In this document: positions 8,441-55,400 of the stretch, in pieces | Layout of the letters: every line of letters begins with the position of its first letter | Position numbering within the stretch: the stretch's first letter is position 1 | Source of the DNA: Mobula hypostoma | Lineage: Eukaryota | Assembly (NCBI RefSeq): GCF_963921235.1 | Contig: NC_086108.1 | Location: 6,262,001-6,326,000, forward strand | DNA: 64,000 nucleotides | Direction of reading: 5' to 3' | The notes under the pieces: generated by a model | What the model was told of the DNA's origin: nothing | The model's input: only the letters and a program-made list of their open reading frames with translations | Databases searched by the model: none | Program-made: the position numbers and the translations under genes

Positions 8441-8449
8441 AGAGAAGAA

Positions 8450-33619: not shown

Positions 33620-33820
33620 CTACCCTTTGTCCAAAGGTGAGCAGGATTATTGGATTCCCTAATTGCTTCTAAATTAGGTATCCTCACTTTAAATACACAT
33701 ACACTTACCCAACAATGGGCTGTCACTGTTAGAAGCGTCTGATTTGACTGAGGAATGTGAATACACAGGACATCCCTGAGATAAGTGATGCAGGTCCCAG
33801 CCCAAGGAGTATAAATCCTG
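33620..33820 (+). promoter_or_regulatory. Proximal promoter of the homeobox gene (TATA, two FoxH1 sites, Smad, TCF-like, Sox, K50 site)
   Basis: TATAAA 33810-33815; AATACACA 33692-33699 and 33760-33767; GTCT between them; CCTTTG-TC-CAAAGG 33624-33637; AACAATG 33711-33717; GGATTA 33644-33649. Non-repetitive sequence directly upstream of the ATG. Confidence 0.55.
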
Positions 33821-33901
33821 GGAGAGCACTGGGAGTGACGGTACTACTGTCCGGGTAACTGCCAGCTGCTGGAGATCGGTAGAGGAACATTGCACCTCCC
33901 A

Positions 33902-34181
33902 ATGTCTGACTTCAGCATCGACACCATCCTCTCCAGGAGGGCGGACAGATATGTTTCCAATCCCTTGTCCTGCCCCTGTCAGCCTTTCCTGCTCTATTCT
34001 GCAGGCGGTTTTGTGCCCAGCCACTGTAGCGTCAGTTACATCGGACTCCACCCGGACCCCGTTTCTGCGCCGGCTGCAGGTGCCGTGACTGGCGAGGGTT
34101 TCCACTTCGGCCACAGAGTGGGTTCACGTTGTCCCCATCGGGCCCACCAGCCCCAGCACCACTTCTGCCCAGGACAAACAG
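33902..34181 (+). CDS. Exon 1 of goosecoid-related (Gsc/dharma-like) PRD-class homeobox gene; eh1 repressor motif
   Basis: ATG 33902 opens MSDFSIDTILSRR (eh1 FSIDxIL). Reading frame is open to CAG|GTAGGT at 34181/34182 (280 nt, phase 1). TATAAA lies at 33810. Confidence 0.85.
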
Positions 34182-34927
34182 GTAGGTCAAATATGATGGC
34201 AGAGTATAGCATTAATGGTAAGACTCTTGGCAGTGTGGAGGATCAGAGGGATCTTGGGGTCCGAGTCCATAGGACACCCAAAGCTGCTGCGCAGGTTGAC
34301 TCTGTGGTTAAGAAGGCCTTCATCAGCCGTGGTATTGAGTTTGGGAGCCGAGAGGTAATGTTATAGCTATATAGAACCCTGGTCAGACCCCACTTGGAGT
34401 ACTGTGCTCAGTTCTGGTCGCCTCACTACAGGAAGGACGTGGAAACCATAGAAAGGGTGCAGAGATTTACAAGGATGTTGCCTGGATTGGGGAGCATGCC
34501 TTATGAGAATAGGTTGAGTGAACTCGGCCTTTTCTCCTTGGAGCGACGGAGGATGAGAGGTGACCTGATAGAGGAGTACAAGATGATGAGAGACATTGAT
34601 CATGTGGATAGTCAGAGGCTTTTTCCCAGGGCTGAAATGGCTAGCACGAGAGGGCATAGTTTCAAGGTGCTTGGAAGTAGGTACAGAGGGGATGTCAGGG
34701 GGATGTTTTCACACAGAGAGTGGTGAGTGTGTGGAATGCACTGCCGGCGGCGGTGGTGGAGGCGGAAACAATAGGGTCTTTTAAGAGACACCTGGATGGA
34801 TACATGGAGCTTAGAAAAATAGAGGGGTATGGGTAAGCCTAGGTAGTTCTAAGGTAAGGACATGTTCAGCACAGCTTTGTGGGCCGAAGGGCCTGTATTG
34901 TGCTGTAGGTTTTCTATGTTTCTATGT
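34182..34927 (+). mobile_element. 5'-truncated CR1 LINE inserted at the exon 1 splice donor
   Basis: GRSNMMAEYSINGKTLGSVEDQRDLGV...EYCAQFWSP; (TTCTATGT)n tail ending ~34927. Confidence 0.9.
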
Positions 34928-35219
34928 AATGATCGCGGCCTTTCACTGTGTACCTGCATGGACATCTTTCCAAAGAGATTCTGGGAGGTTACTAATCTTA
35001 CTTGTAAGACCTTTCTTTCTTTTTCCAATATTTTTATTGATTTTGATTTCTATATATAGAATATAGAGTTCAAGAGAATAGATATTATAAAACAAAAGAC
35101 AAAATATAATAATACCAGATAGAGTATATTGAATCACATTAACAAACTCCTTACTCTATATTCATATGGATTAGATTAGTTTGTATATTAGAATATAAAC
35201 AATTTATATTCTTAACCAT

Positions 35220-35745
35220 AATACCATAAGGTATAGGAGCAGAATTAGGCCATTTGGCCCATCGAGTCTGTTGTGCCGTTTCATCATGGCTAATCCATTT
35301 TTGTCTCAGCTCCAGTCTTCTGCCTTCTCCTTGTACTCCTTCATGCCCTGACTAATCAAGAACTTATCAACCTCTGTGTTAAACATACCCAATGACTTGG
35401 CCTCCACAGCCACCAGTGGCAATGAATTCCACAGATTCACCACTCCCTGGCTAAAGAAATTCCTCCTCATCTTTGTTCTAAATGGACGTCCCTCTATTCT
35501 GAAGCTGTGTCCTCTAGTCTTAGACTCCCTCACCATAGAAAACATCCTCTCCACATCCACTCTATCAAGGCCTTTCTCCATTCGACAAAGGTCACCCCTC
35601 ATTCTTCTGAATACCAGTGAGCAGAGGCCCAGAACCATCAAACACTCCTCGCATGATAAGCCTTTCATTCCCAGAATCATTCTCCTGAATCTCCTTTGAA
35701 CCCTTTCCAACGTCAGCAGATCCTTTCTTAGGTAAGGGGCCTTTT
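35220..35745 (-). mobile_element. CR1 LINE 3' fragment
   Basis: ERVQRRF...TRGHSFRI...FFSQGVVNLWNSLP; CCATAAGA-type tail. Confidence 0.85.
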
Positions 35746-36170
35746 TAGTTGTTGTAGAGGGAGCCCATATGCCTTTGGAATGTGGGAGGAAATTGGAACA
35801 CAGAAGAAACCCACACGGTCACAGGGAGAACGTACAAACAGCGGTGGGAATTGAACCCCCACTGGTGACTGCTGGTGGTGCAACCACTATTCTATCGTGC
35901 CGCCCTACCTGTTGGTCAGGGCTGCTCTGTCAATCCAATCTTTTGATCAGTCAAGACTTTAATCATTCAGCCATTGGTGCCCATGGCTCCAAGTTCTGGA
36001 ATTCCTTCCCTCATCCTCTCCACATCTCTTCTGAGAAACACCCAATACTGGAGCATAGGAAAATGAGGGGAGATTTGACGTATACAAAATTATGAGGGGT
36101 ATAGATAGGATGTTGTAGTTTCAGTGTGTTGTAGCCTAGGGTGGAAATGGGGATAAGCTCCCGCTAACTA

Positions 36171-37436
36171 CAAGTGTCTATGAAAAGTATTCACCCCCTC
36201 CCGCCACCCATGGAAGTTTTCATGTTTTATTGTTTTACAACATTGAATCACAGTGGATTTAATTTGGCTTTTTTTGACAATGATCAGCAGAGATAGAATC
36301 TTTCATGTCAAAGTGAAAACAGATCTCTACAAAGTGATCTAAATGTATTACAAATATAAAACACCAAGTAACTGACTGGATAAGTATTCACCCCCTTCAA
36401 GTCAGTATTTAGTAGATGCACCTTTGGCAGCAGTTACAGCCTCGAGTCTGTGTGGATAGGTCTCTATCAGCTTTTCACATCTGGACACTACAATTTTTCC
36501 CCTTTCTTCTTTACAAAACTGCTCAAGCTCTGTCAGATTGCATGGGGTCGTGAGTGAACAGCCCCTGTCAGGTCCAGCCATGGGTGTGTTTTTGATGATG
36601 TGCAGTGTCTGGCTAATGCTACACGTAGCGTATAGTTTCATGGCCAAAAATCTGAATTTTGGTTTCATCAGACCATAGAACCTTCTTCCAGCTGACTTCA
36701 GAGTCTCCCACATGACTTCTGGCAAACTCCAGCCGAGATTTCATGTGTTTTTTTCAACAGTGTCTTTCTCTTTGTCACTCTCCCATAAAGCTACAACTGG
36801 CGAAGCACCCAGGCAATGGTTGTTTTATACGCAGCCTCTCCCTTCTTGTACAATCACTCAGTTTTTGAGGACGGCCTGCTCTAGGGAGATTTACAGCTGT
36901 GCCATATTCTTGTCTTTTTTGATGATTGACTTAACTGTACTCCAGGGGATATTCAGTGACTTGGAAATTTTCTTGTATCCATCTCCTGACTTGTGCTTTT
37001 CAATAACCTTTTTATGGAGTTGCTTGGAGTGTTTTTTTGTCTTCATGGTGTAGTTTTTGCCAGGATACTGACTCACCAGCAGTTGGACCTTCCACATACA
37101 GGTGTATTTTTACTACAATCAATTGAAACACCTTGACTGCACACAGGTCTCCAAAACATCTTCACTTAACTAATTATGTAATTTCTAAAACGAATTTGCT
37201 GCACCACTGATGAATTGTTGTGTTATATTAAAGAGGGTGAATGCTTATACAATCAATTATTGTGTTTTATATTTGTAATTAATTTAGATCACTCTGTACA
37301 GACCTGTTTTCACTTTGACACGAATGAGTCTTTTCCTGTTGATCAATGTCAAAAAATGTCAAATTAAATCCACTTAGATTCAACGTTATAAAACATGAAA
37401 ACTTTCTCAGGGGGTGAGTACTTTTCACAGGCACTG
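36171..37436 (-). mobile_element. Internally deleted Tc1 transposon flanked by TA
   Basis: TIRs CAAGTGTCTATGAAAAGTATTCACCCC / GGGGTGAGTACTTTTCACAGGCACTG; MKTKKHSKQL...GYKKISKSLNIPWSTVKSII. Confidence 0.88.
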
Positions 37437-38364
37437 TATTAAATGCTCCCCATGGCATGTTCCTCAAATAGCCTCTGACAACTAGCTCCTGGCCATCACG
37501 TGTGGCTTAGGTACTAGACCCAATGGAACCATTTCTACGGACAATAAAAGGGTCAAAGGCAGGTTACTGGCATCTTAAAACCATTCGCTTCAGATGGGGC
37601 TTGTCAGCTGTGGTTAGGAGAAGGAAGACGCTGATCTCAAATCTCTGCTGCCTTGCGGGTATACTCGCTCATGGGGGGGTGGCTTCGAGAGTAAACTCCG
37701 AGGGAAAATCCACTGCCGGAATCCCTAAGGACTATGTTAGCTGACTGGCAATTTCTGCGATGGTGCTGGTGCTGAACTGTATCGGTGTCTGCCGTTCCTT
37801 TGGGTTCACTAGTTGCACGGGGGCGGGGGGAGCCCACTGCATGGGCAACAGCTCGCTCTCCCTATTGTACCACCCTGGCTTGCATATCTAGACAGCTTGG
37901 ATGCAACATCAATGGCCAACGGCAGCCTCAACTTAGATAGGATAAATGCAAGCAGGGTCTTCCCACTGAGTCTGGCTGAGAGGTCATGGGTTAAGGGTGA
38001 AAGGTGAAATGCTTTAGGGGAGGAAGAGGAGAACTTCTTCATTCAGGGCGATGAGAGTGTGCAACAAGCGGCGAGCAGAAGTGGTGGATGGGGGTTTGAT
38101 TTCGACATTTAAGAGAAATTTAGATAGGTAATGGATGGAAGGGGTATGGAGGACTTTGGTCATGGTGCAGGTCAATGGGAGTAGGCAGAATAATAGTTCA
38201 GCATAGACTAGATGGGCCAAAGGGCCTGCTTCTGTGTTGTAGTGTTCTATGGCTCTAGTACTTGTTCACTTGCCCCAGTCGCTACTCAGCTTTGTTCTTT
38301 CATGCTCCTTTTGCCGAATCCCTTGGTCTTGCTGACGTGAGCTGTTTCTGGGCCCCAGCACCAG

Positions 38365-38567
38365 GTATTCTGAGTCCAGCCCCTATGGGTCAGCTGAGAC
38401 TTCACTCCCTGGCCCAGAAGGGGAAGAGGAGACGGAGGCATAGAACAGTTTTCACACAGCAGCAGTTGGAATATCTGGAAAACCTCTTCAACACATCAAG
38501 TTACCCAGATAGCAGCACCAGGGAGAAGCTGGCCAGGAAAACCCATCTCTCCGAGGAGACCATCAAG
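38365..38567 (+). CDS. Exon 2 of goosecoid-related homeobox gene (homeodomain residues 1-46)
   Basis: Encodes ...KGKRRRRHRTVFTQQQLEYLENLFNTSSYPDSSTREKLARKTHLSEETIK. Phase-1 acceptor CCAG| at 38364 (alternative AG at 38358), CTGAC branch-like motif at 38332. Donor AAG|GTACGT sits at the PRD-class codon 46/47 intron position. Confidence 0.92.
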
Positions 38568-38669
38568 GTACGTGACTTCCAGTCAAAAGACAACATCTGC
38601 AGGCAGAAACCAAATGGATGAATACCTGCATGATTGTAGCACCTGTTGCATTTCCTTTCACAGCATAGA

Positions 38670-39255
38670 ACATCGAACAGTATAGCATACAGTACAGTCC
38701 CTTCGGCCCACAAGGTTGTGATAACTTTTTAACCTATTCTAAGATCAACCTAACAATTCCCTCCTACATAACCCTCCGTTTTTCTATCATCCAGGTGCCT
38801 AATTAGTTTCTTAAATGCCCCTAATGTATCTGCCTCTACCATCACCCTGGCAAGACGTTCCATGTTCCCACCACTCTCTGCGTAGAAAAAACCACCTCTG
38901 ACATCCTCACACCCCCCACATACTTTCCTCCAATCACCTTAAAATTATGCTTCCTCATATTTGCAATTTCTGTCTGTCTGTCCACTCCATCTATGCCTCT
39001 TATCATCTTGTACACCTCTATCAAGTCACCTCTCATCCTCCTTTGCTCCAAAGAGGAAAGCCCTAGCTCACTCATAAGACATGCTCTCTGATCCAGGCAG
39101 CGTCCTGGTAAATCTCCGCTGCATCCTCCTTAAAGCTTCCGCATCCTTCCTAAAACGTGGCGACCAGAGCTGAACACAATATTCCAAGTGTGGTCTAACC
39201 AGGGTTTTATAGAGCTGCAACGTTACCTTGTGGTTCTTGTACTCAGTCCCCTGAC
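38670..39255 (-). mobile_element. CR1 LINE 3' fragment
   Basis: LYKTLVRPHLEYCVQLWSP...RMRGDLIEVYK. Confidence 0.85.
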
Positions 39256-39261
39256 CAAAGG

Positions 39262-39545
39262 TAGAGTAGTGGTTAGCACAACGCTTCACAGTATAGGTGA
39301 TCTGGATTCAATTCCTGCTCTTGCCTGTACGGAATTTGTACGTTCTCTCTGTGTAATACGTGGGTTTTCTCCAAGTGCTCTGGTTTCCTCCCACAGTCCA
39401 AAGACGTACCGGTTGGTAGGTTAATTGGTCATTGTAAGTTGTCCTGTGATTGGGCGAGGGTTAACTCAGGTGGTGCGGCTTGAGATGCCAGAATGGCCTA
39501 TTCTGCGCTGTATCTCAATAAAAAATGAACGGATAAATAAATAAA
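39262..39545 (+). mobile_element. tRNA-derived V-SINE-like element (HE1/SINE2 type)
   Basis: A-box-like GTAGTGGTTAG, B-box GATTCAATTCC, V-domain GGTTTCCTCCCACAGTCCAAAGAC, AATAAA-rich tail. Related copies at 18680-18915 (-), 19050-19240 (+) and 35760-35910 (-). Confidence 0.7.
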
Positions 39546-40591
39546 TATTAATGAACACATCACCAAGTCTGCACATAGCAAGATCCATTAAATGACAATG
39601 TGACCAACTACTTTTGCCATGTTGATTGATGGATTGTATTGTAGATTACTGCAAGTCTGGTTTTGTTTGCCTGTATTCATAAGACCATAAGATGTAGGAG
39701 CAGAATTCACCCATTTAGTCCACCATTTCATTGCTGATCCATGTGTATGGCTGAATGACAATTAAACTTGAATTTAGTCCAAAGACACCCCTACTTATCC
39801 TAGGTGTAATAGTAATTAAATCATTTATATCCACCTCAGATAGTGATAGGACCCAAAAAGGGGAATTGGAGAAGTATGAGGGAAAATAGGAATAAATTAG
39901 GGCCAGGGTTTTATGTAGAGGTTTAGACTTTGAACCATAAATCCTAGTTTGATATCTCTTCCAAAAGACGGTGTCTCCAACCCTCTTAGGACTGTGCTGG
40001 GAAACATTTATCCACGACATCGTCATGGAGTGATGCCTCTAGGGCCAACGGGCACAGCCTCAGAATAGAAGAATGTCCCTTTAGAATGGAGAAGAGGAGG
40101 AATTTCTTTAATTAAAGAGTGGTGAATCTGTGGAATCCATTGCCACAGATAGTTGTGGAGGCCAAGCCATTGGTATATAGGTAAAGTAGAGGTTGATGGA
40201 TTCTTCACTTGTAAGGGTGTTAGAGGTGACGGGGAGAAGGCAGGTGAAAGGGATTGAGAGAGATAATAAATCAGCCATGATGAAATGCTGGAGAAGATGT
40301 GATGGGCCGAATGGCTTCATTCTGCTCCTATGTCTTATGGCCTGTAGTTGTTAAACAAATTCACCCTCATAGTAAATGACCTGGAAACAAGGGGAACATA
40401 AATCATCCCAGTTGTCCATTTCTTGGTTTGTTCACTTACAGAGAAGGTAAGAAGACACGACTGGAGTTAGTTGTGATTCCACCACAACTAACGATGACAC
40501 AGCCAGTTAGAATGCTCACCACAGTACATCTGTGGAAATTTGCAAGTGTTTTTGGTGACATACCAAATCTCCACGAACTCCTAATGAAATA

Positions 40592-42228
40592 CAATGCCTA
40601 CAAAAAATATTCACCCCCCCCCCCCCAGTGGAAGTTTTCACGTTTTATTGTTGTACAACATTGAATCACAGTGGATTTAATTTGGCTTTTTTGACACTGA
40701 TCAACAGAAAAGGACTCTTTCACGTCAAAGTGAAAACAGATCTCTCCAAAGTGATCTAATTTAATTACAAATATAAATTACAAAATAATTGATTGTACGA
40801 GTATTCACTCCCTTCAAGTCAGTATTTAGTAGATGCACCTTTGGCAGCAATTACAGCCCTGAGTCTGTGTGGATAGGTCTCTATCAGCTTTGCACATCTG
40901 GACACTGCAATTTTCCCCTTCTTCTTTACAAAACTGCTCAAGCTCTGTCAGATTGCATGGGGATCGTGAGTGAACAGCCCTTTTCAAGTCCAGCCACAAA
41001 TTCTCAATTGGATTGAGGTTTGGACTTTGACTTGGCCACTCCAGGACAATAACTTCATTGTTTTTAAACCATTCCTGTGTAGCTTTGGCTTTATGCTTGG
41101 GGTCATTGTCTTGCTGGAAAACGAATCTTCTCCCAAGTCACAGTCCTCTTGTAGATTGCATCAGGTTTTCCTCCAGGATTTCCCTGTATTTTGCTGCATT
41201 CATCTTACCCTCTACCTTCACAAGCCTTCCAGGGCCTGCTGCAGTGAAGCATCCCCACAGCATGATGCAGCCACCACCATGCTTCACAGTAGCAATGGTG
41301 TGTTTTTGATTATGTGTGGTGTTTGGTTTACGCCAAACAAAGTGTAAGTTGGCAAAAAAGCTCAATTTTGGTTTCATCAGACCATAGAAACTTCTTCCAA
41401 TTGACTTCAGAATCTCCCACATGCCTTCTGGCAAACTCTCGCCATGATTTCATGTGAGTTTTTTTTCACCTTTTTTGCCACTCTCCTATGAAGCTGTGAT
41501 TGGCGAAGCACCCAGGCAACAGTTGTATGTGCAGTCTCTCCCATCTCAGCCACTGAAGCTTGTAACTCCTCCAGAGTTGTCATAGGTCTCTTGGTGGCCT
41601 CTCTCACTCGTCCCCTTCTTGCACGGTCACTCAGTTTTTGAGGACGGCCTGCTCTAGGCAGATTTACAGCTGTGCCATATTCTTTCCATTTCCTGATGAT
41701 TGATTTAACTGTACTCCAGGGGATATTCAGTGACTTGGAAATTTTCTTGTATCCATCTCTTGACTTGTGTTTTTCCATAACCTTTTTGCAGAGTTGCTTG
41801 GAGTGCTCTTTTGTCTACGTGGAGTAGTTTTAGCCAGGATACTGGCTGACCAGCAGTTGGGCCTTCCAGATACAGGTGTATTTTTACTAAGATCAATTGA
41901 AACACCTTGATTTGCACACAGGTTTCCAAAAACAGATTTCCATTTAACTAATTATGTGACTTCTAAAACCAATTGGCTGCACCAGTGATGATTTGGTATG
42001 TCATTTTAAAGTGTTGGTGAATACTGATGCAATCAATTATTTTGTGTTTTATAATTAATTTAGATCACTTTGTAGAGATTTGTTTTCACTTTGACATGAA
42101 AGAGTCTTTTTCTGTTGATGAGTGTCAAAAAAAGCCAAATTAAATCCACTGTGAATCAATATTGTAAAACAACAAAACATGAAAACTTCCAAGGGCAGGG
42201 GAGGAGTGAGTACTTTTTATAGGCACTG
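40592..42228 (-). mobile_element. Near full-length Tc1 transposon (inactive)
   Basis: Long inverted repeats; frameshifted transposase with paired-like HTH (GYKKISKSLNIPWSTV, GRPQKLS) and [13 protein letters not shown]. Confidence 0.92.
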
Positions 42229-42239
42229 CGTATCTATTT

Positions 42240-45200
42240 AAAATGTAAATTAAATAAGTAGTGCAAAAAAGAAAAAAAAATAGTGAGGTACTGTTCAGGA
42301 GTTCATTGTCCATTCAGAAATCGGATGGCAGAGGGGAAGAAGCTGTTCCTGAATCATTGAGTGTGGGTCTTCAGGCTCCTGTACCTCCTCCCTGATGGTA
42401 ACAGAGAGAAGAGGGCATGTCCTGGGTGATGAGGGTCCTTAATGATCAGATGCCACCTTTTTGAGGTATCACTCCTTGAAGATTTCCAGTATGCTGGGGA
42501 GACATGGAGCTAAGTTTACAACTTTATGCAGCTTATTTCGATTCTGTGCAGTGCCCCCAACACCCATACCAGATGGTGTTGGAGCCAATTAGAATGCTCT
42601 GTACAGTATATCTGTAGAAATCTGCAAGTGACAAACCAAGTCACCTCAAACTCTGAATGAAATATAGCCACTGTTGTGCCTTCATCAATATGTTGGCCCA
42701 GGATAGATCCTCAGAGATATTGATACCCAGGGACATGAAAGTACTCACCCTTTCCACCTGATGAAGACTGGTGTGTGTTTCGCTTGTCTTACCCTTTCTG
42801 AAGTCCACAATCAATTCTTTGGTCTTACTGTCAATTAGTGCAGGGTTGTTGCTGCAACACCTCTCAACCAGCAGATCTATCTTGCTCCTGGATGCCCTCT
42901 CGTCACCATCTGAAATTCTGCCAACAATAGCTGTGCCATCATCAAATTTTTAGATGGCATTTGAGCTATGCCCAGCCACACAGCCATAGGTGTAGAGAGA
43001 GTAGAGCAGAGGGCTAAGCACGCATCCCTGAGGTGCGCCAGTGTTGATTATCAGCGAGGTGGAGGTGCTATTTCCGATCCGCACAGACTGCGGTCTCCCG
43101 GTGAGGAAACCGAGGATCCAGTTGCAGAGGGAGGTACAGAAGCCCAGGCTTTGGAGCTTTTCGATCAGAACTGTTGGCATGATTGTGTTAAAATACTGAG
43201 CTGTAGTCAATAAACAGCAGCCTGATGTATTAGTAGCAGAATGCCATGGCGTGATTTTAAAGGGAACCGGGGTGGGGGGGGGGGTGCTAAAAATTCCACA
43301 GATTCATCACCCTCTGATTCATGATCCTCTGGCCTTAGGCTCCCCCACCATAGAAAACATTGTCTCAACATCCACTCTTTCAAGGCCTTTCACCATTTGA
43401 TAGGTTTCAAAGAGGTCACCCCTCATTCTTCTGAATTCCAGTGAGTACAGGGCCAGAGATACCAAACATTCTTCATATGACAAGCCATTCAATACTGGAA
43501 TCATTTTTGTGAACTTCCTTTGAACCCTCTCCAATGCAAGCACATCCTTTCTCAGATAAGGGGCCAAAACTGCTCACAATACCCAAGTGAGGCCTCAACA
43601 GTGCCTTAGAAAGATTCAGCGTTATACCTTTGCTTTTATATTCTAGTCCTCTCAAAATGAATGCTAACATCGCATTTGCTTTCCTCACCACTGACTTCAC
43701 TTGCAAACTAACCTTTAGGGAATCCCACACGAGAACTCCCAAGGCCTCAGATTTTTGAATTTTCTCTCCCTTTAGAAAATAGTCTATACTTTCATTTCTT
43801 CTACCAAAGTGCATGACCATACACTTCCTGACACTGTATTCAGTCTGCCACTTCCTTGCCCATTCTCCCAATCTGTCTAAGTCCCTCTTTAGCCTCTCTA
43901 CTTACTCAAAACTACCTGTCCCTCCACCTGTGTTCTTATTGTCCACAAACTTTACAAACGATACATTTCACTGAATGTTTTGATGTTTCCATGCACTTGT
44001 GACAAATAAAAGTGATCTCTAATCTCTAAATTTATCTCACAGACAAGTTACTTAAAAAAAAAATCAGTTCACAAAGTGTTAGGGCATTCAGTACATGTGC
44101 AAGATGTGGTATTTTGGGAAGTACCCAAACCCAAGGCACAAACAAAATGCTGGAGGATCTCAGTAGATCAGGCAGCATCTAACGAGGGGAAAAGCAGCCA
44201 ATGTTTCTGACCAAGACCCTTCATCGGGATGTGACTCAGAGAACAGCAGGGCTGTGGGGGAGTGTTGTGGATCAGAAGAATGGATGATTACAACTACATG
44301 ATTCCCAGAAGTGAATGCTCAGGAAGACAGCGGGGGCGGGGGGGGTGAAGCTGGTGTTTTAACATAGAGTATAGTTCAGGCCTAGGATGGCGGAGTAGAG
44401 TTGTAGGGAGAGATTGGGCAGACTTTATTCCCTGGAGTGTAGGAGACTGGGAGGTGAACTTCAGAATCAGGATCAGGTTTAATATCACTGGCACATGTCG
44501 TGAAATTTGTTAACTTTGTGGTAGCAATACAACGCAATACATGATAAATACAGAAATAAACTGAATACATATACATGTATGTCAAATAGTTAACTTAAAA
44601 TAAGTCATGCAAAAAACAAAATTTAGAAAACTGATGGCAGGGGAGTGAACCTGTTCCTGAATCATTGAGTGTGTGCCTTCAGGTTCCTGTACCTCCTCCC
44701 TGATGGTAGCAATGAGAAGAGGGCATGTCCTGGGTGATGAGGGTCCTCAATGATGGATGCCGTCTTTCTGAGGCAGCACTCCTTGAAGATGTCTTGGATA
44801 CAATGGATGCTAGTGCCCATGATGGATCTGACTAAGTTTACAAGTTTCTGCAACTTACTTCAATCTTATGCAGTAGCCACCCCACCCCCATACCAGACAG
44901 TGATGCAGCCAGTCAGAATGCTCCCCACAGTACATCTGTACAAGTTTTCAAGTTTTGTAGGTGATAAACCAAATCTCCTCGAACTCCTAATGAGATATAG
45001 CCATTATGCTGCCTTCTTTATAGCTGCATCGATATGTTGGGACCAGGTTAGTTCCCCAGAGATGTTGATACCCAGGAATCTGGAGTTGCTCATTCTCTCC
45101 ACTTCAGATTCCCCTGTGAAGTCTGGTGTGTTTTCCCTTGTGTTTCGGAAGTCCACAATCAGTTCTTTGGTCTTACTGACGTTGAGTGCAGGGTTGTTGC

Positions 45201-45270
45201 TGCGACAACACTCAACCAGCTGACATATCTCACTCCTGTACACCATCTCGATACCAGCTGAGATTCCGCC
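42240..45270 (-). mobile_element. Rex1/Babar fragments (42240-43230, 44460-45270) and a CR1 fragment (43300-43950)
   Basis: [14 protein letters not shown]...[31 protein letters not shown]1 WARKWQ...RPHL. Confidence 0.8.
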
Positions 45271-45714
45271 AACTACTCATGGGAGTGTTTAAAAAACATG
45301 GAGGCAAATGTTTCCAATCTTTTCCCCAGGGAAAGAGAATCAAAAACTAGAGAGCAGAGGTTTAGGATGAGAGGGGAAAGACCTGAGGGACAACTTCTTC
45401 CTGCAGAGGGTGGTGGGTGTATAGAACGAGCTGCCAGAGGTTGTGGTTGGAGCAGGTACATCAGCAACATTTAAACTACAGTGGGACCGATACAATGGAT
45501 TCTGTTTAGTCGGGACAGCTCATCCATGACTTTGGATTTCCAGCATCTGAAGACTTTCTTGTGTTTATCAGAAAAAACAAAAACTAAATCAAGAAAATAA
45601 ATACAAAATAACCTGCAGATGCTGGGATCAAAGCAACAATCACAGTACGCTGGAGGAACTCAGCAGGTCCGGCAGCATCAGTGGAAACGATGAGTCGACA
45701 TTTCGGGCTGGAAT

Positions 45715-47145
45715 CATAGAAACATAGAAACATAGAAAATAGGTGCAGGAGTAGGCCATTCGGCCCTTCGAGCCTGCACCGCCATTCAGTATGATCATGG
45801 CTGATCATCCAACTCAGAACCCTGGACCAGCCTTCCCTCCATACCCCCCATACCCCCTGATCCCTTTAGCCACAAGGGCCATATCTAACTCCCTCTTAAA
45901 TATAGCCAATGAACTGGCCTCAACTGTTTCCTGTGGCAGAGAATTCCACAGATTCACCACTCTCTGTGCGAAGAAGTTTTTCCTAATCTCAGTCCTAAAA
46001 GGCTTCCCCTTTATCCTCAAACTGTGATCCCTCGTTCTGGACTTCCCCAACATCGGGAACAATCTTCCTGCATCTAGCCTGTCCAATCCCTTTAGGATTT
46101 TATATGTTTCAATAAGATCCCCCCTCAATCTTCTAAATTCCAACAAGTATAAGCCTAGTCAATCCAGTCTTTCATCATATGAAAGTCCTGCCATCCCAGG
46201 AATCAATCTGGTGAACCTTCTTTGTACTCCCTCTATGGCAAGGATATCTTCCCTCAGATTAGGGGACCAAAACTGCACACAATACTCCAGGTGTGGTCTC
46301 ACCAAGGCCTTGTACAACTGCAGTAGTACCTCCCCGTTCCTGTACTCGAATCCTCTCGCTATAAATGCCAGCATACCATTCGTCTTTTTCACCACCTGCT
46401 GTACCTGCATGCCCACTTTCAATGACTGGTGTATAATGACACCCAGGTCTCATTGCACCTCCCCTTTTCCTAATCGGCCACCATTCAGATAATAATCTGT
46501 TTTCCTATTTTTGCCACCAAAGTGGATAACTTCACATTTATCCACATTAAATTGCATCTGCCATGAATTTGCCCACTCACCTAACCTATCCAAGTCACCC
46601 TGCATCCTCTTAGCATCCTCCTCACAGCTAACATTGTCGCCCAGCTTCGTGTCATCCGCAAACTTGGAGATGCTGCATTTAATTCCCTCATCTAAGTCAT
46701 TAATATATATTGTAAACAACTGGGGTCCCAGCACTGAGCCTTGCGGTACCCCACTAGTCACTGCCTGCCATTCTGAAAAGGTCCCGTTTATTCCCACTCT
46801 TTGCTTCCTGTCTGCCAGCCAATTCTCTATCCACATCAATACCTTACCTCCAATACTGTGTACTTTAAGTTTGCACACTAATCTCCTGTGTGGGACCTTG
46901 TCAAAAGCATTTTGAAAATCCAAATATACCACATCCACTGGTTCTCCCCTATCCACTCTACTAGTTACATCCACAAAAAATTCTATGAGATTCGTCAGAC
47001 ATGATTTTCCTTTCACAAATCCATGCTGATTTTGTCCGATGATTTCACCACTTTCCAAATGTGCTGTTATCACTGACTCTAGCATTTTCCCCACCACCGA
47101 TGTTAGGCTAACCGGTCTATAATTCCTCGGTTTCTCTCTCCCTCC
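45715..47145 (-). mobile_element. Young CR1 LINE (same subfamily as 20000-21279)
   Basis: [13 protein letters not shown]...FADDTK; (CATAGAAA)n tail; near-identical to the copy at 20 kb. Confidence 0.92.
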
Positions 47146-48718
47146 TGAACAAAGAAGGAGGGGGAAGGATTTGAAGAATGCTTGTAGGTTCAGTTGAAAG
47201 ACCAGTAATTTGAAAGACAAAGGGGTGGGGGAGGGGAAGCAGGGACGTCATAGGCAAGAAAACAATGGGTAGTAGTAGAAGGAGGCAGAACCATGAGGGA
47301 GGTGATAGGCAGCTGGAGGAGGGGGCAGAGTGAAATAGGGATAGAGGAGGGAGGGGGAGGGGGAGGGAATTACCAGAAGTTGGAGAATTCTATGTTCATA
47401 CCAAGGGGCTGGAGACTACCTAGACGGTATATGAGGTGTTGCTCCTCCAACCTGAGTTTAGCCTCATCATGGCAGTAGAGGAGGCCATGTATGGACATAT
47501 CTGAATGGGAATGGGAAGCAGAGTTGAAGTGGGTGGCTACTGGGAGATCCTGTCTGTTGTGGCAGACGGAGCGGAGGTGCTCGACGAAGCGGTCCCCCAA
47601 TCTGTTTCACCGATGTAGAGGAGGCCGCACTGGGAGTACCGGATGCAATAGATGACCCCAACAGACTCACAAGTGAAGTGTTGTCTCACCTGGAAGGACT
47701 GTCTGGGGCTCTGAATGGTGGCAAGAGAGGAGGTGTAGGGACAGGTGTAGCACTTACACTTACAGGGATAAGTGCCGGGTGGGAGTTCAGTGGGGATGGA
47801 CTTGCGGATAAGGGAGTGGCGGAGGGACCGATCCCTGCAGAAAGCAGAGAAGGGTGGAGAGGGAAAGATGTGCTTAGTGGTGGGGTCCTGTTGAAGGTGG
47901 TGGAAGTTGCGGAGGATAATGTGCTGGATCCGGAGGCTGGTGGGGTGGTAGGTGAGGACAAGGGAAACTCTGTCCCTGTTGTGGTGGTGGGAGGATGGGG
48001 TGAGGGCCAAAGTGTGGGAAATGAAGGAGATGCGGGTGAGGGCATCATTGATGACGGTAGAAGGGAAACAACGATCCTTAAAGAAAGAGGACATTTGAGA
48101 TGTCCTGGAACGAAAAGTCTCATCCTGGGAGCAGATGCGGTGAGACGGAGGAACTGGGAATAGGGAATGGCATTTTTGCATGTGGTGGGGTGGGAAGAGG
48201 TATAGTCGAGGTAGTTATGAGAGTCAGTGGGCTTGTAGAAGATGTCAGTGGACAGTCTGTCTCCAGAGATGGAGACTGAGAGATCGAGAAAGGTGAGAGA
48301 AGTGTCCGAGATAGCCCAAGTGAATTTGAGGGCTGGGTGGAAGTTTGAAGTAAAGCCGATGAAATTGATAAGCTCAGCATGGGTGCAGGAAGCAGCACCA
48401 ATATAGTCATCAATGTACTGAAGGAAAAGTTGGGGAGCAGTACCAGAATAGGTTTGGAGCACAGACTGTTCCACATAACCAACGAAGAGGCAGGCATAGC
48501 TGGGTCCCATGCGAGTTCCCATAGCTACACCCTAGTCTGAAGAAAGTGGGAAGAGCCAAAAGAGAAGTTATTGAGTGTGAGAACCAGTTCCGCCAACCGG
48601 AGGGTAGTGGTGGTGGGGAACTGGTGAGGTCTGTTATCCAGGAAGTAGCGGCGGGCTTTGAGCCCTTCTTGATGGGGAATGGAGGTGTATAAGGATTGGA
48701 CATCCATAGTAAAAATCA
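47146..48718 (-). mobile_element. Penelope-like element (RT plus GIY-YIG), disrupted; 3' end continues at ~45590-45712
   Basis: TMDVQSLYTSIPH, MGTRMGPSYACLF, YIDD, FYKPTDSH, FTCESVGVIYCI...YIGET, RFVEHL. Confidence 0.9.
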
Positions 48719-49262
48719 AGAAAATAGGCAGGATTCCCTTTGTTTATTTGGGACAACATGCTGCTTAATTGGGGCAGGAGGTTGTTGCTGAATAGCTTCT
48801 AACTAGCATCAGTTGTGTGCACTTCTGTGGCTGTTAGAAATTACTCCATACTTTGAGTAGCAACATACGCAACTGATTTAACACTGTTTGCTCTAAAAGC
48901 AGTGAATTTTGTCACTAATAGTTGGTGAGAAATAAGCAGTGAGACAATTTGAACTGTTTTACTCACTGTGGTTTCAAGCGTTCAGGCTTGGAGATGTCAG
49001 AGTTGGCTGGGAGTGAAAGTGAAACAATTTCACTACTTCAACAAGTTAGAAACTATGAGGGTATCGACGATTATCTTGAATGTTACAATAAAAATGAAGA
49101 TTTGGAGGATGTAATCATTTAAAACATTGTATGTAGGCAGTCCATTATCTACTTTAGGTGTCTGCTGATATTGTTCATTTACAGTCAATTAAAAGAATGC
49201 AGCAGATGAATTCCTCCGTTGATAACTATTAGGAACTAATACACAGATTTATAATACTGTGG

Positions 49263-51400
49263 TAGACCATAAGAATTAGGCCATTCGGCCCATTGAGTCT
49301 GCTCTGCCATTCCATCATGGCTGATCCCGGATCTCACTCAACCTCATACACCTGCCTTCTCGCCTTATCCTTTGAGGCCCTAACCAATCAGAAAATTATC
49401 AACTTCTGCCTTAAATGTACCCACAGACTTGGCCTCCACCGCAGTCTGTGGCAGAGCATTCCACAGATTCACTATTCTTTGGCTAAAAAAAATCCTCCTT
49501 ACCTCTTCTAAAAGATCGCCACTCAATAGCCATAACTGTTGACAATATTCCAAATGCAGTTTGACTAGTGCCTAATAAAGGATCAGCATTATCTCCTTGC
49601 TTTTATATTCTATTCCCCTCGAAATAAATGTCAATTTGCCGCCTTTACCACAAACTCAACCTGTAAATTAACCTTCTGGGGAAGTCCCTCTGCACCTCTG
49701 ATATTTGAACCTTCCCCCCATTTAGATAATAGTCTGCACTATTGTTCCTTTTACCAAAATGCATTATCGTACATTTCCCAGCACAGTATTCCATCTGCCA
49801 ATTTTTTTGTCCATTCTTTCAATTGTCTAAGTCCTGCTGCAATTGCATTGCTTCCTCAGCACTACCTACCCCCCACCTATCTTCATATCATCTGCAAACT
49901 TTGCCACAAAGCCATCAATTCCATTGTCCAAAACGTTGACAAACAATGTGAAAAGTAGCGGTCCCAATACTGTCCCCTGAGGAACACCACTAGTCACCAG
50001 CAGACAACCAGAAAAGGTCTCTTTTATTCCCACTCGCTGCCTCCTGGCTGTCAGCCTTTCGTCTATCCATGCCAGTATCTTTCCTGCAATTCCATAGGAT
50101 TTTATCTTGTTAAGCAACCTCATATGCTGCAGCTTAATAAATGTCGTCTGAAAATCCAAGTATATGAAATCCACTACCTCTTCTTTGTCCACCCTGCTTG
50201 TTACTTCCTCGAAGAAACTCCAACAGATTTGTCAGGCAAGGTTTCCCTTTACAGAAACCATGCTGACTTTGACTTATTTAATCATTAATCTCCAAGTACC
50301 CTGAAACCTCATCCTTAATAATAGACTCCAACACTTTTCCAACCACTGAGGTTAGGCCAACTGGCCCATAATTCCTTTCTTTTACCTTCTTCCCTTCTTA
50401 AAGAGCGGAGTGATATTTGCAATCTTACAGTCCTCCGGGATCATGCCAGCATCAAGTGATTCTTGAAAGATCTTGACCAATGCATCAGTTATCTCTTCAG
50501 CAACCTCTCTCAGGACTCTGGGATGTCATCCATCTTGTCCAGGTGACTTATCCACCTGAAGACCTTTGAGTTTGCCTGGCACTTTTTCCGTTGTAACAGC
50601 AATGGCACTCACTCCTGCTCCCTGACACTCTGGCACACTGCTAGTGTCTTCCACAATGAAGACTGGTGCAAAGTACCCATTAAGTTCATCCATTACTATC
50701 TCACCAGCATCATTTTCCAGTGGTCCAATATCAACTCTCACCTCCCTCTTACTCTTTATATAACTGAACAACTTTTAGATTCTTGTATTATATTATTGGC
50801 AAGTTTCCCCTCATATTTCATCTTTCCCCTTCTTATAGCTTTTTTTGTTGCTTTTCGTTGGATTTTAAAAGCTTCCCAATTATCCAACTTCCCACTCACT
50901 TTTGCTACCTTATATGCCCTTTCCCTGGCTTTTATGCAGTCCTTAACTCTCTGTGTCAGCCATGGTTGCCTAGCCCTGCCATTTGAGAAATTCTTCTTCT
51001 GTAGGACATACCGAACCTGCACCATTCCAATACTGATACATGTGACTTCTGCTTCTCCTTCTCAAACTGCAGTATGAATTCAATCATATTATGATCACCA
51101 TCTCCTAAGGGTTCCTTTACATTAAGCTCCCTAATAAGATCTGGGTTATTACACAACACTCAGTTTAAGATAGACTTTTCCCAAGTAGGCTCAAGCACAA
51201 GCTGCTCTAGAAAGCCATCTTGTAGGCATTCAACAAATTCCCTCTCCTACAATCTGACACCAATCTGATTTTCCCAATCCCTATGCATATTGAAGTTCCC
51301 CATTACAATTGTGTAATTACCCTTATTACATGCCTTTTCCAGCTCCCTTTGCAATCTCAACCCTACATCCTGGCTACTATTTGGAGGCCTATATATGATT
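49263..51400 (-). mobile_element. Degenerate CR1 LINE (endonuclease end through RT)
   Basis: EPLGDGDHNMIEF, KSPGQDG, YLDFQ...VPQGTVLGP...FADD. Confidence 0.85.
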
Positions 51401-51829
51401 ATTGTACTATAGTAGTATATGATTTTATATATGATTATATATAGTAGTGTTGGTAGTGTTCTAATTTGTTCTGTATTTTATTTAGATACATAATTTGTTA
51501 TTCAGTTAAACAGTAGTTAATATTTTTTCATTTTAACTATTTCCATGATATTTTGGCTAATTGGTGCAGCCGCTAAATTGGGCCAAAATGCACTGGTCCC
51601 AGTGTGTCCCAATTAACCAGAATCCACTGTATATGGATAGGAAAGGTTTAGGGCAGGGGTTCCCAACCTGGGGTCCATAGACTCCTCAATTAATTGTAGG
51701 GATCCATGGCATAAAAGATGTTTAGGGGGATATGGGCCAAACATGGGCAAATGGAACCAGCGTAGATGGGCCAACATGGAAGGGTTGGACAGAGGAACAG
51801 ATTCTGTGTTGTACCAGTCGTTAACCCAG

Positions 51830-52530
51830 ATAAATGTGAGCTGTTGCACCTCGGTAGGTCAAATACAAGAAGACAGTTCACTGTTAAAGGCAAGATCCTT
51901 AACAGTGATGCTGAGCAGAGAGATCTTGGGTTCCAAGTTCATAGCTCCTAGAAAGTGGCTACACGGGTCGATGAGGTGGTTAAGGCAGCTTATAGAATGC
52001 TTTTATTAGTCGAGGCATTGAGTTCAAAAGTCAAGAGGTTACGTTGTAACTTTATAAAACTTTGGTTGGGCCACATCTGGAGTGTTGCATACAGTTCTGG
52101 TTGCCCCACTATAGGAAGGATGTTGAGGCTTTGGAGAGGGTGCAGAAGAGGTTTACCAGGATGCTGCCTGGTTTAGAGGGCATGTGCTATCATGAGAAGC
52201 TGGATAAACTTGGGTTGTTTTCTCTAGAGCACCAGAGGACATGCATTGAAGGTGTGAGGGGGAAGGTTCCAGGGGGATGAGAGGAAGTTTTTTACTCAGA
52301 GAGTGGTGGATGTCTGGAATGCGCTGCCTGGTACAGTAGTAGAGGCAAGTACATTCGAGGCTTTTAAGAGACGTTCGGATAGACACATGGATGTGAGGAA
52401 GATGGAGGGATGTGGACACGGTGTAGGTAGGAGGGATTAGTGTTTTGCTGTTTTTGATTTACTTTTTAGCTGGTTCAGCACAACACTGTGAGCCGAAGGG
52501 TCTGTTCCTGTGCTGTACTCTTCTAGGTTC
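51830..52530 (+). mobile_element. CR1 LINE 3' fragment
   Basis: NPDKCELLHLGRSN...PHLECCIQFWLPHYRKD. Confidence 0.85.
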
Positions 52531-53622
52531 TGTGCTGGTTATAGCTCTGCTGTTGTGTGTGAGTTTGCTGGATAGAAGGACCAGAGGGCACAGCATCAGA
52601 ATTCAAAAATGTCCCTTTAGAACAGAGATTAGGAGGAATTTCTTTAGCCAGAGGGGGATGAATCCGTGGAATTCATTACACAGATAGCTTGGAGGCCAAG
52701 TCACTGGGTGTATTTAAAGCAGAGGTTGTTAGGTTCTTGGTTATTCAGGGCATCAAAAGTTATGGGGAGAAGGTTGAGGCCCTTCATTGGTTGGAGTCAA
52801 CTAAGGATGTTGCGTCTAGCGCCTTTGTTGCCAGGGCAGAGCAATATGGAGAGCAGGCTGTTGCCCATGCAGCAGCCCCCCCTCTCCACATAGCTGATGA
52901 ATCCAAAGGAACAGCAGAGACCAAAACTGTTTGGTACCACCAGCATTGCAGGAGTTGCCAGTCAGCGTTAAGCTCAACATTGGACTGCCTTAGGACTCCA
53001 GCTTTGGATTTTTCCCTTGGGATTTACTCCCGAAGCCTTCCCCGTGAGTGGGTATAGCCGCAAGGCAGTGGAGGCTTGAGATCAGTGCTTTCCTTCTCCC
53101 TGATGAGCTGCCAACCATCCGCTCGAAGTAACCAGTAAGCCGCCTTTGCCCCGCTCCTAGAAACAGTTCCGCTGGGCTTAGTAGCTAAGCCACATGTGAA
53201 GGCCCGGAGCTGGACTTGATTGTCAGAGGCTATTTGAGGTGCACTCCATTGGGAGCATTTAATAGGTAGTAGGAGCTTGTCCCCATTACCACCCTCCATG
53301 GCTATAATAACTAAGGAACTGAATGGGGTTGAGCAGTATAATAAATCCCCCATGATGGGATGGTGAAGCAGACTCCAGACTCCATAGACCAAATGGCCTA
53401 ATTCTGCTTCTATGTCTTGTGGTATTACAACTGTGACTTCATTGCCCATGAAGTGCTTTGGGAAACCACAGATGACGGAGAGGGTGGGCAAACTCTCAGG
53501 TAAGACCCCACCTGAAACCTGACAATCCGTCACAGTGCTGCGCTGCCTAGCCCAGTGAGACTTCAGTGCCCCCTAAACCATTGCCGTGCCCTTCTTCCTA
53601 AACTCTCCTCGTTTCCACGTAG

Positions 53623-53757
53623 GTCTGGTTCAAAAACCGACGGGCCAAGTCAAGGAAACAGAAGACGCCCCTCCAAGGGAGGGTGAGCAGTTCGAGTATG
53701 TGTGACACCGTGGAGGACGCGGGCAAGGTCTCAGTCCATTCCAGTACGAAGTCATGA
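53623..53757 (+). CDS. Exon 3 of goosecoid-related homeobox gene (helix 3 with K50, C-terminus, stop)
   Basis: Pyrimidine tract then TAG|GTCTGGTTCAAAAACCGA, giving [44 protein letters not shown]. Phase 0 matches exon 2. ATTAAA at 53903 is a possible polyA signal. Confidence 0.9.
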   Translation, partial: [44 protein letters not shown]

Positions 53758-54230
53758 TGCATCAGAATTGAGCGGCTCTTGGTGTTACACCCAAACGCTC
53801 CCAGTTTCTGGGTCCCAATCTGGCCTGGATTTTGTTAAACAGCAAAACATGGAAGTTTACTTAGAAAAGAGTCCCTGGAAGGAAAATGCTCGACATCCCC
53901 TGATTAAAGTGAACAAGAGAAAATATGCAGATGCTGGAAATCCAAGCAACACACACAAAATGCTGGAGGAACTCAGCAGCATCTAGGAAAAGAGTACAGC
54001 CAACATTTCGGGCAAAGACCCTTAATTTTACTTTAACCATTCACTTTAATCATTTATATGTGACCACTTGCTGTGTCAAGGGCATTGTCACAACAAATGC
54101 TTCAATCCAAACTTTGAACTCACACCAACTGGGTTTTTTTCCACGTTTTGACTCGTCTAACCTCTGCGGATCCCAATCTGAATTACTGCAGACCAGCTCT
54201 GCAAAGATTCTCCAAACCTCTCAAAAAATC

Positions 54231-54315
54231 ATGGCTCGAATCTCGATGGTGAATGGTGCTTGCTTTGCACAAAGCCTGGTACTTATTTGTGGTTTGATGA
54301 TTTACTCTTCTGCTG
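54231..54315 (+). CDS. Candidate signal-peptide first exon of an unidentified downstream gene
   Basis: Kozak AAAATCATGG; MARISMVNGACFAQSLVLICGLMIYSSA has a hydrophobic core and small-residue end, followed by phase-1 donor G|GTGAG. Sequence is unique. No matching second exon found. Confidence 0.4.
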
Positions 54316-54704
54316 GTGAGCTGGCAGTGGTGAAAGAAATCAGATACAGTTGTAGTGTGATTAATTACAGAGTAGTATCGAGATGCTAGACTGGAGCGAC
54401 TAGAGTTCAAATCCTGCTACAGTAGCTTGGGATTTTAAATTAAATTAAGTCAACTTGGAATGAGAAGGTAGTCTCAGTAATGGTGAACATGATGTAAACA
54501 CCTACCTGCTGACAAGTATCCTTGAAAAGAGGAAATCTGTGGTCTTTAACCAGTTTGGTCTTTTGTGACTCCAGGCCAAACAGTGAAGTCGAACTTTATT
54601 GAGGAAGAATTAAACTTTATTGGTCAACTTTGCCACTAAATATCAGTCCTGTGAATGGATAATAACCAACAGTTAAAAACTTTATCTGCTCTGGGAGATT
54701 GTGA

Positions 54705-55400
54705 AGTGTGTGTGCGCGTGCGTGTGCGAGAGAGAGAGATTGGGAGAGAGGGGAAAGGAAGAGAGAGAGAGGGAGGAAAAAATGAGAAAGAGGAGGGGAA
54801 AGAAGGGGAAATGAGGAGGGACAAGGGGAGAGAGGTTGGGAGAGGGAGATGGAGGGGGGGAAGGGGGAAGAGGGAGAGAGGAAGACAGAGAGATGGAGGG
54901 AGAGGGGAGAGAAAGAGAAGAGGAGTGAGGGGCAGAGATGGGAGAGAGAAGGGGAAGAGGGGAGAGAGTGGAGAGAAGCGGGGAGAGGGAGAGAGATTGA
55001 GAGGGAGAAGAGGGGTGAAGAGGAAGGGGAGAGAGGGTGTGAGTCATAGGGAGAGGGGGAGGGAAGGAGGAGAGTGAGGGGGAGAGAAAGAGGAGGAGAG
55101 TGAGGGAGATAGGAGAGAGAAGGGGTAAAAGGGCAGGGGGAGAGAGGGGAGAGTGAGAGAAGATTGAGAAAGGGGGAGAGTGGGTGGAAGACATGGGGAA
55201 GAGGGAGAGAGGAAGTCAGGGAGGGAGAGTTTGGGGAGAGATGAAAGAGGGGGGAGAAAAAGAGGAGGAGAGATGGGAGAGAGAAGGGTTAAGAGGGCGT
55301 GGAGAGAGAGACTGGGAGAAAGGGGGAGAGAAGGGAGAGGGAGAAAGATTGAGGGGGGAGAGAGAAAGAGGGAAGGAGAAAGGGGAGGAGAGAGAGAGAA
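54705..55400. repeat. Polypurine (GA-rich) low-complexity tract
   Basis: Almost exclusively G/A on the + strand. Confidence 0.9.

Follow-up and report, generated by a model that had tools for sequence, protein, structure and literature searches.

A goosecoid-family homeobox gene of the ray Mobula hypostoma with a probable place on the Dharma branch

Background

Goosecoid (Gsc) and Dharma are sequence-specific repressors, and in zebrafish dharma (bozozok) is required for the organizer and is the earliest of the zygotic targets of maternal beta-catenin. Gsc combines an eh1 motif, a homeodomain with lysine at position 50 (K50), an intron between homeodomain positions 46 and 47 and a conserved motif preceding the homeodomain; Gsc2 (also GSCL) is a K50 protein of the same family; and Dharma/Bozozok/Nieuwkoid, which is named in teleosts and has unnamed counterparts in sturgeon, is a protein of ~180–230 amino acids (aa) in which a paired-type homeodomain with K50 follows an N-terminal eh1 motif. 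Here we describe a gene from a 64,000-nucleotide (nt) stretch of the genome of the ray Mobula hypostoma (RefSeq assembly GCF_963921235.1, contig NC_086108.1, positions 6,262,001–6,326,000 of the forward strand; hereafter the window), which has the four features of Gsc and those listed for Dharma, and whose predicted protein is similar in length to Gsc2 and to Dharma. The gene is already publicly annotated as 'goosecoid-like'; we propose that it probably lies on the Dharma branch in the wide sense, as either an orthologue or a sister paralogue of dharma, a placement that would correct this label.

Published work describes Dharma as induced by maternal beta-catenin and functioning in the organizer, and boz as a repressor of bmp2b (PMC4744249), and two further papers state that amphibians, birds and mammals lack a clear homologue of Bozozok (PMC3162930, PMC7373230). 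A literature search of full texts outside subscription journals returned neither a cartilaginous-fish or sturgeon counterpart of dharma nor a placement of dharma in the goosecoid family. An earlier reading of the window, made from its letters alone (the sequence-only reading), had suggested a divergent K50 gene of the goosecoid family, possibly a third Gsc paralogue or a dharma orthologue in a cartilaginous fish. The analysis reported here follows up that suggestion.

Results and discussion

A three-exon gene for a goosecoid-type protein

Three coding exons on the forward strand (Table 1) join into a coding sequence of 624 nt, which encodes a protein of 207 aa. The sequence-only reading had proposed three phase-compatible exons and a product of ~205 aa, and its model held in detail: the exons lie where it placed them, with canonical splice sites and an intact frame, and both the eh1 motif FSIDTIL (residues 4–10) and the homeodomain (residues 118–177) read exactly as it had quoted them. 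Two other in-frame acceptors are available for exon 2 (38365 and 38380); the one adopted here gives a junction of the same length as that in the gene model of Hypanus, which also begins with MSDFSIDTIL.

The homeodomain is of the paired type and carries K50, a feature of the Goosecoid family within the paired (PRD) class, together with W48, F49, N51 and R53, and position 56 is occupied by S, so that the absence of W56 noted earlier is real. The Pfam Homeodomain profile matches in two parts, positions 1–45 in exon 2 (E = 3.5e-14) and positions 46–57 in exon 3. The first intron is in phase 1 and the second interrupts the homeodomain at 46/47; the latter arrangement is common to many PRD genes, and all 29 of 29 homeobox exon matches in the ray genome end at or about homeodomain position 46. 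The same 46/47 intron is implied by a mis-predicted Dharma protein (P0102).

Orthologues were found in nine other elasmobranchs, comprising sharks, a skate, an electric ray and a stingray. Exon 2 used as a query returned a protein of Hypanus sabinus (97% identity) and proteins of Pristiophorus, Rhinoraja and Stegostoma; the Pristiophorus protein in turn added orthologues from Heptranchias, Heterodontus, Cetorhinus and Mustelus, and a fragment from Narcine surfaced in a profile search of representative proteins. Databases label these 'homeobox protein goosecoid-like' and nothing more. Five of the six full-length orthologues that were aligned are 201–212 aa long, and the sixth, the Rhinoraja model, is extended by 45 residues at its N-terminus to 247 aa. 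The eh1 motif (its columns invariant or near-invariant), the pre-homeodomain motif and a near-invariant homeodomain are present in all six. The RefSeq model of Hypanus sabinus does not stop at the end of exon 2 but takes in 17 residues encoded by the intron before it terminates (compared with window positions 38568–38621); it lacks the last 14 homeodomain residues, K50 among them, a misannotation that hides the nature of the gene.

Placement on the Dharma branch

Maximum likelihood trees (LG+C20+F+G4) were built from 76 alignment columns, 14 of them preceding the homeodomain, 60 within it and two after it. The main tree has 68 rows: the window protein and eight elasmobranch orthologues, 15 Dharma sequences (three sturgeon, 12 teleost), 11 Gsc2, five Gsc and the ray's own Gsc, three hagfish and nine invertebrate Gsc, three outgroups, and the ray's own Otx, Pitx, Dmbx-like and other PRD exons. 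The Dharma set is a selection from the many teleost sequences; Hypanus (incomplete gene model) and Nothobranchius P0266 (no match to the homeodomain pattern) were left out.

The elasmobranch genes and the 15 Dharma sequences form a clade with support 100/100. The goosecoid family, in which the window gene groups with Gsc, Gsc2 and invertebrate Gsc as the sequence-only reading had claimed, is recovered at 95/94 and its vertebrate part at 100/99, with the ray's Otx, Pitx and Dmbx-like genes outside. The joint clade is still recovered at 100/100 when Dharma is represented by the three sturgeon sequences only, and at 97/98 when homeodomain positions 41–46 and 56 are deleted; the helix resemblance to Dharma, which the sequence-only reading had pointed out, is thus real. 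With Dharma removed, the elasmobranch genes form a lineage of their own within a vertebrate Gsc polytomy; with the elasmobranch genes removed, Dharma enters the vertebrate Gsc family at 100/100, its branch measuring 7.9 changes per site. In either case the group left in the tree falls outside both Gsc and Gsc2. The long branches of Pax4 and tick Drgx stay apart from Dharma.

Shared derived residues accompany this clade. R1, V7, S41 and T44 are common to the elasmobranch genes and Dharma and absent from 31 of 31 Gsc, Gsc2, cyclostome and invertebrate rows; position 46 holds a basic residue in both groups against E elsewhere, and neither has W56. I45, likewise absent from the 31 rows, links the elasmobranch genes to the Dharma of sturgeon but not to that of teleosts, where V45 is found as in Gsc, and an A-Q pair before the homeodomain is likewise common to the elasmobranch genes and sturgeon Dharma. 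The elasmobranch protein retains a series of Gsc-like ancestral states that Dharma has lost (H4, L13, D27, E32, H39, K55, R57), has a Gsc-like N-terminus, and evolves several times more slowly than Dharma, with a branch length of 1.25 against 2.78 and more. The earlier description of the gene as fast-evolving is accordingly apt relative to Gsc and misleading relative to Dharma. The C-terminal tails of elasmobranch, Dharma, Gsc and Gsc2 proteins show no profile similarity to one another. As judged from these sequences, the elasmobranch gene would have evolved slowly on the Dharma branch and kept much of its likeness to the common Gsc-type ancestor.

Three Acipenser proteins labelled 'goosecoid-like' or 'goosecoid isoform A' (P0010, P0011 and P0015) are clearly of the Dharma type: they share its helix segment and are sister to teleost Dharma (100/97–100), which takes the origin of Dharma back at least to that of the ray-finned fishes. 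Sturgeon carries a Gsc2-like protein (P0372) as well as these Dharma-like ones; since both types are present, Dharma is not a renamed Gsc2, and the ray-finned fishes have three family members.

A neighbourhood resembling that of Gsc

Positions of ray genes were obtained from family searches that return coordinates (Table 1). The window gene lies on contig C50 between an Otx gene and a Six gene, while the true Gsc shares contig C1 with genes of the same two families. In the human genome we take OTX2, SIX1/4/6 and GSC to lie on 14q, OTX1 and SIX2/3 on 2p, and CRX, NOP53, NAPA and SIX5 on 19q13.3; genes presumed to be contiguous in 19q13.3 are split in the ray between C40 and C50. The Otx, Six, Meis and SNAP genes are distributed over C1, C22, C40 and C50 as if these were paralogous contigs left by the vertebrate genome duplications, and this suggests that the window gene occupies the Otx5/Crx-side copy of Gsc's neighbourhood, with an origin in the early vertebrate genome duplications. 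Because its Otx–Six setting mirrors that of Gsc, the gene is more readily taken for an ancient whole-genome duplication paralogue than for a Gsc2 that was translocated or a copy made recently. PMC6711879 contains nothing on otx5 linkage. A fuller scenario, in which Dharma is no teleost invention but the fast ray-finned form of an ancient 'Gsc3' that was born in the vertebrate genome duplications beside Otx5/Crx and Six, stayed near-ancestral in sharks and rays and was lost in lobe-finned vertebrates, is offered tentatively and strikes us as somewhat unlikely.

Weighing the placement

Several observations weigh against the Dharma placement or its duplication setting. Both lineages sit on long branches in an alignment of 76 columns, for which the program raised a 'long branches meet' flag, and the approximately unbiased (AU) test used below is open to the same bias. 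Outside the homeodomain and the motif preceding it, the eh1 motif alone aligns between elasmobranch and Dharma proteins (11–12 columns), whereas the N-terminus of the elasmobranch proteins aligns to that of Gsc over 62 columns (probability 88%). Homeodomain identity is 41/60 with Gsc, the figure that the sequence-only reading had estimated, 37–39/60 with Gsc2 and 30–36/60 with Dharma. An exhaustive profile search, which covered 1.84 billion representative proteins, placed true Gsc at the top of the single-homeodomain matches (~117 bits), followed by cyclostome and invertebrate Gsc and then by Gsc2 (~97–104 bits), and its best 150 matches include a single Dharma entry (Nothobranchius, 97.9 bits); with true Gsc ranked first and Dharma low, raw similarity favours Gsc. 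The human map positions used above are background knowledge, and the names of the ray Otx, Six and Meis copies were inferred from linkage and not from trees. Tcf/Lef-type sites (CTTTGWW) are not enriched in the window (46 against 55.6 expected), and the 1 kb upstream of the ATG contains none.

The comparison with the zebrafish dharma locus belongs with these points. Its context was read, for zebrafish only, from the order of peak numbers of an assay for transposase-accessible chromatin (ATAC) in supplement file 8 of PMC8831532, where dharma has peaks 77551–77557. Its nearest listed neighbours there are nova2 and blmh (77453–77458) on one side and si:ch211-137a8.4 and capns1b (77576–77595) on the other; slc6a4a (77434–77442), gdpd5b and serpinh1b (77655–77659) and sae1 (~76190) are listed further away. 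Genes that in zebrafish correspond to the block around the ray gene have peak numbers far from dharma, ~249750 for napaa and selenow1 and ~118130 for napab and ehd2b, and evidently lie in other parts of that genome (PMC8831532). Conversely, ray bleomycin hydrolase is on C71 and the markers of the human NOVA2 side (Symplekin, PPP5 and a Meis gene, assumed to flank it) are on C40, neither of them on C50. PEN-2, a proxy for the CAPNS1 region, maps to C23, and a KH_1 search for Nova2 yielded a paired pattern of matches, on C1 and on C40, which can be read only tentatively as Nova1/Nova2. No neighbourhood shared by the window gene and zebrafish dharma was found where the genes could be mapped, and this check gave the suggestion of dharma orthology no support. 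The negative is a weak one, because the pieces that make up the mosaic zebrafish region map to three or more ray chromosomes and only zygotically expressed genes are listed in the table.

The alternative that survives best takes these points at face value: the window gene would be an independent, ancient Gsc-family paralogue confined to elasmobranchs, and its grouping with Dharma the product of long-branch attraction together with convergent residues in the recognition helix's first turn. The program's warning, the shortness of the alignment, the lack of shared synteny with zebrafish dharma, the Gsc-like N-terminus and the overall similarity, which is highest to Gsc, would all suit it. However, the joint clade outlasts deletion of the shared motif and keeps its full support with the less divergent sturgeon sequences alone; the other long branches, Pax4 and tick Drgx, do not join Dharma; and beyond the helix-3 motif the two groups have V7 and R1 in common, and the elasmobranch genes and sturgeon the A-Q pair. 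We consider an independent paralogue unlikely.

The Dharma branch therefore remains, in our judgement, the probable place of the window gene, and two versions of this relationship may be distinguished. The gene would be either a slowly evolving elasmobranch orthologue of dharma, or a sister paralogue, elasmobranchs having kept one copy and ray-finned fishes the other; on the latter version the copies would have split at the second duplication round and each been lost in the other lineage. Without shared synteny, one-to-one orthology is indistinguishable from sister paralogy with reciprocal loss, and we put strict orthology at a little under an even chance. Thus of the earlier suggestion of a dharma orthologue, the kinship stands on an exclusive clade and shared derived residues, while the expected synteny did not materialize.

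Relationship to Gsc and Gsc2

Gsc homeodomains are near-invariant: over 46 positions, a single difference separates the exon of the ray's true Gsc from the primate Gsc homeodomain. The window gene, on a different contig, differs from Gsc at 19 of 60 and reads SEETIK where Gsc reads REEKVE. After the orthologues, the list from a word-indexed search continued with a single true Gsc (111 bits) and three 'goosecoid-like' proteins of sturgeon (76–92 bits), followed by dozens of teleost Dharma proteins. The nearest clusters in the ESM Atlas are Goosecoid (0.96), dharma (0.95) and goosecoid-2 (0.92), values that fit an intermediate position and do not discriminate.

An exclusive clade of the elasmobranch genes with Gsc was rejected (AU p = 0.0017), as was one with the 11 Gsc2 proteins (AU p = 0.012). 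With the true Gsc located on C1, these rejections bear out the view that the window gene is neither the ordinary gsc nor the ordinary gsc2 of this species.

Gsc2 itself was not found in the ray genome. A lungfish Gsc2 query returned only two Gsc-like matches, Gsc (58%) and the window gene (52%). ESS2 (DGCR14), which we take to be the immediate neighbour of Gsc2 in the human genome, is represented by an Es2-family gene at C2:159.02 Mb, and no homeobox lies in the 200 kb around it (142 kb upstream and 58 kb downstream; C2:158.88–159.08 Mb); nor is there a chondrichthyan protein among the best 120 of 1,420 Gsc2-like proteins. These results suggest that Gsc2 has been lost in the ray, or in elasmobranchs generally. 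Of the two separate loci that the sequence-only reading had wanted confirmed, gsc is therefore present and gsc2 is not found.

The same negatives could be explained if the window gene were a relocated and divergent elasmobranch Gsc2. Against this stand the AU result and the monophyly of Gsc2, which excludes the elasmobranch genes in every tree (support from 89/90 to 99/95 in the main tree and the one without Dharma), as well as the location of the gene on C50 and not with ESS2 on C2; the window gene also lacks T1 and the N23-Q24 pair typical of Gsc2 rows and has no 'Gsc2-only' homeodomain state. This explanation is accordingly very unlikely. Less likely again is a Gsc duplicate that arose recently within elasmobranchs and then diverged at speed: it would account for Gsc being the best single-homeodomain profile match and for the 62-column N-terminal similarity, but it conflicts with the rejection of the Gsc clade and with an Otx–Six setting paralogous to Gsc's, which points to duplication of a whole chromosome and not of a single gene.

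From its sequence relationships the window gene is best described as a third Gsc-family paralogue of jawed vertebrates, beside Gsc and Gsc2. The earlier suggestion of a third Gsc paralogue thus stands for jawed vertebrates as a whole; as a count for this ray it fails, because no separate Gsc2 was found in its genome.

Constraint and copy number

Comparison with Hypanus shows 46 of 46 identical residues in homeodomain positions 1–46 against 89 of 113 in the N-terminus, and thus purifying selection on the DNA-binding domain. In exon 3, homeodomain positions 47–60 are identical to those of Rhinoraja and Narcine (14/14 each) and nearly so to those of Pristiophorus (13/14). The gene is single-copy in its own 3.48-Gb assembly, where the next match to exon 2 is Gsc at 60% identity. 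A decaying or non-functional locus with a fortuitous open frame, an idea that the transposon-swamped introns and the incomplete Hypanus model might encourage, is hardly credible given frames that are intact in ten species across sharks and rays, an invariant homeodomain core and eh1 motif, and the selection just described. We predict that this single-copy locus is functional and encodes a goosecoid-family transcription factor of 207 aa.

Predicted function and expression

By analogy with Gsc and Dharma, the K50 homeodomain would bind bicoid-type TAATCC sites and the N-terminal eh1 motif would recruit Groucho/TLE co-repressors, so that the protein would act, as they do, as a sequence-specific, Groucho-dependent repressor. 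The first turn of the recognition helix, which is common with Dharma and has a basic residue in place of E at position 46, may alter contacts with DNA or with partners; this is speculation. That the protein takes part in patterning the early axis or the organizer is a guess made by analogy.

Four sequencing runs compared with window positions 33860–53800 gave repeat-derived contig matches only, and no joint at 34181/38359 or 38567/53623. One run (X6) contains DNA-like contigs across exons 1 and 2 with ~38–43 differences, which probably come from a relative.

Introns, upstream sequence and the remainder of the window

The transposable elements said to fill the introns were identified as a Tc1/mariner-type transposase and three reverse-transcriptase fragments (Table 1), and over intron 1 contigs of other sequencing runs stack at very high, repeat-like depth. 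The Pfam scan covered 141 of the 179 window open reading frames (ORFs) of at least 88 aa, the other 38 belonging to a minisatellite or to the repeat-rich stretch at 54–57 kb; among the 141, no host-gene family was matched besides the homeobox exon, all other matches being transposon domains.

Upstream of the gene are a putative core promoter and a small cluster of homeodomain-type sites (Table 1). The single GGATTA in this cluster is not significant, because TAATCC/GGATTA occurs 12 times in the 64 kb; the cluster could be an auto- or cross-regulatory element, and is given as a lead that is statistically unremarkable.

Elsewhere in the window, a 5-kb minisatellite (13665–18643) consists of ~187 copies of a 27-bp G-rich unit with 69% matches. 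The GC skew over this array is extreme, reaching 0.83, and the array yields long spurious ORFs in several frames. The region 8172–11383 on the forward strand resembles a long terminal repeat (LTR) retroelement, with zinc knuckle, integrase (H2C2, rve, p58_C), reverse transcriptase and RNase H in that order. Its integrase precedes the reverse transcriptase despite domains of the Ty3/gypsy type, so that either the gene order is unusual or one piece is nested in another. GC skew is again strongly positive (0.25–0.47) at 54000–60000. A long interspersed nuclear element (LINE; endonuclease at 56946–57569, reverse transcriptase at 58144–58890) makes up part of this region, and Tandem Repeats Finder (TRF) detected no tandem array there at a score of at least 200.

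Table 1. Features of the window gene and its surroundings, in window positions, and of related genes in the ray genome, by contig
Feature	Position	Strand	Details
Homeodomain-type site cluster	33643–33680	+	One GGATTA (reverse of TAATCC), TAATTG, TAAATTAG; ~230–260 nt 5' of ATG
TATAAA box, putative core promoter	33810–33815	+	92 nt 5' of ATG; read directly
Coding exon 1	33902–34181	+	93 codons + 1 nt, phase 1; ATG at 33902; donor CAG/gtaggt
eh1 motif FSIDTIL	33911–33931	+	Residues 4–10, within exon 1; protein start MSDFSIDTIL
Intron 1	34182–38358	+	4,177 bp, gt..ag, repeat-rich
Coding exon 2	38359–38567	+	Acceptor gggccccag/C; donor AAG/gtacgt; phase 0 after homeodomain residue 46
Homeodomain residues 1–46	38430–38567	+	In exon 2, after the conserved pre-homeodomain motif
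Intron 2	38568–53622	+	15,055 bp, gt..ag, at homeodomain position 46/47
Tc1/mariner-type transposase remnant	40829–41814	-	In intron 2; domain scan
Reverse-transcriptase fragments	42953–43303, 46453–47247, 49869–50231	-	In intron 2; domain scan
Coding exon 3	53623–53757	+	Acceptor ccacgtag/G; stop TGA at 53755–53757
Homeodomain residues 47–60	53623–53664	+	In exon 3, followed by a 30-aa C-terminal tail
K50 codon	53632–53634	+	AAA, fourth codon of exon 3
SNAP/NAPA-like	C50, 3.03–3.08 Mb		
Otx	C50, 3.75 Mb		
Window gene	C50, 6.30 Mb		
Six	C50, 8.72 Mb		
Nop53	C50, 8.90–8.92 Mb		
Gsc	C1, 29.12 Mb		
Three Six genes	C1, 37.29–37.47 Mb		
Otx	C1, 55.88 Mb		
Two Six genes and one Otx gene	C22		
Meis-type genes	C1, C22, C40		
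PPP5 and Symplekin	C40		

Conclusion

The placement proposed here gives Dharma a family and an approximate age. A dharma-type gene lineage is probably, on the sequences compared, much older than the teleost fishes, and the slowly evolving elasmobranch protein offers a stand-in for reconstructing the ancestral protein. The age of the switch from beta-catenin to Dharma in the organizer becomes testable in catshark or skate embryos. On the fuller scenario given above, should the elasmobranch gene also act early on the organizer side, the step from beta-catenin to a Dharma-type repressor would be ancestral to jawed vertebrates and not peculiar to teleosts. PMC4744249 presents Siamois and Twin of Xenopus as only the functional equivalents of Bozozok in frogs, and if it acts early, the elasmobranch gene would belong to the same functional class.

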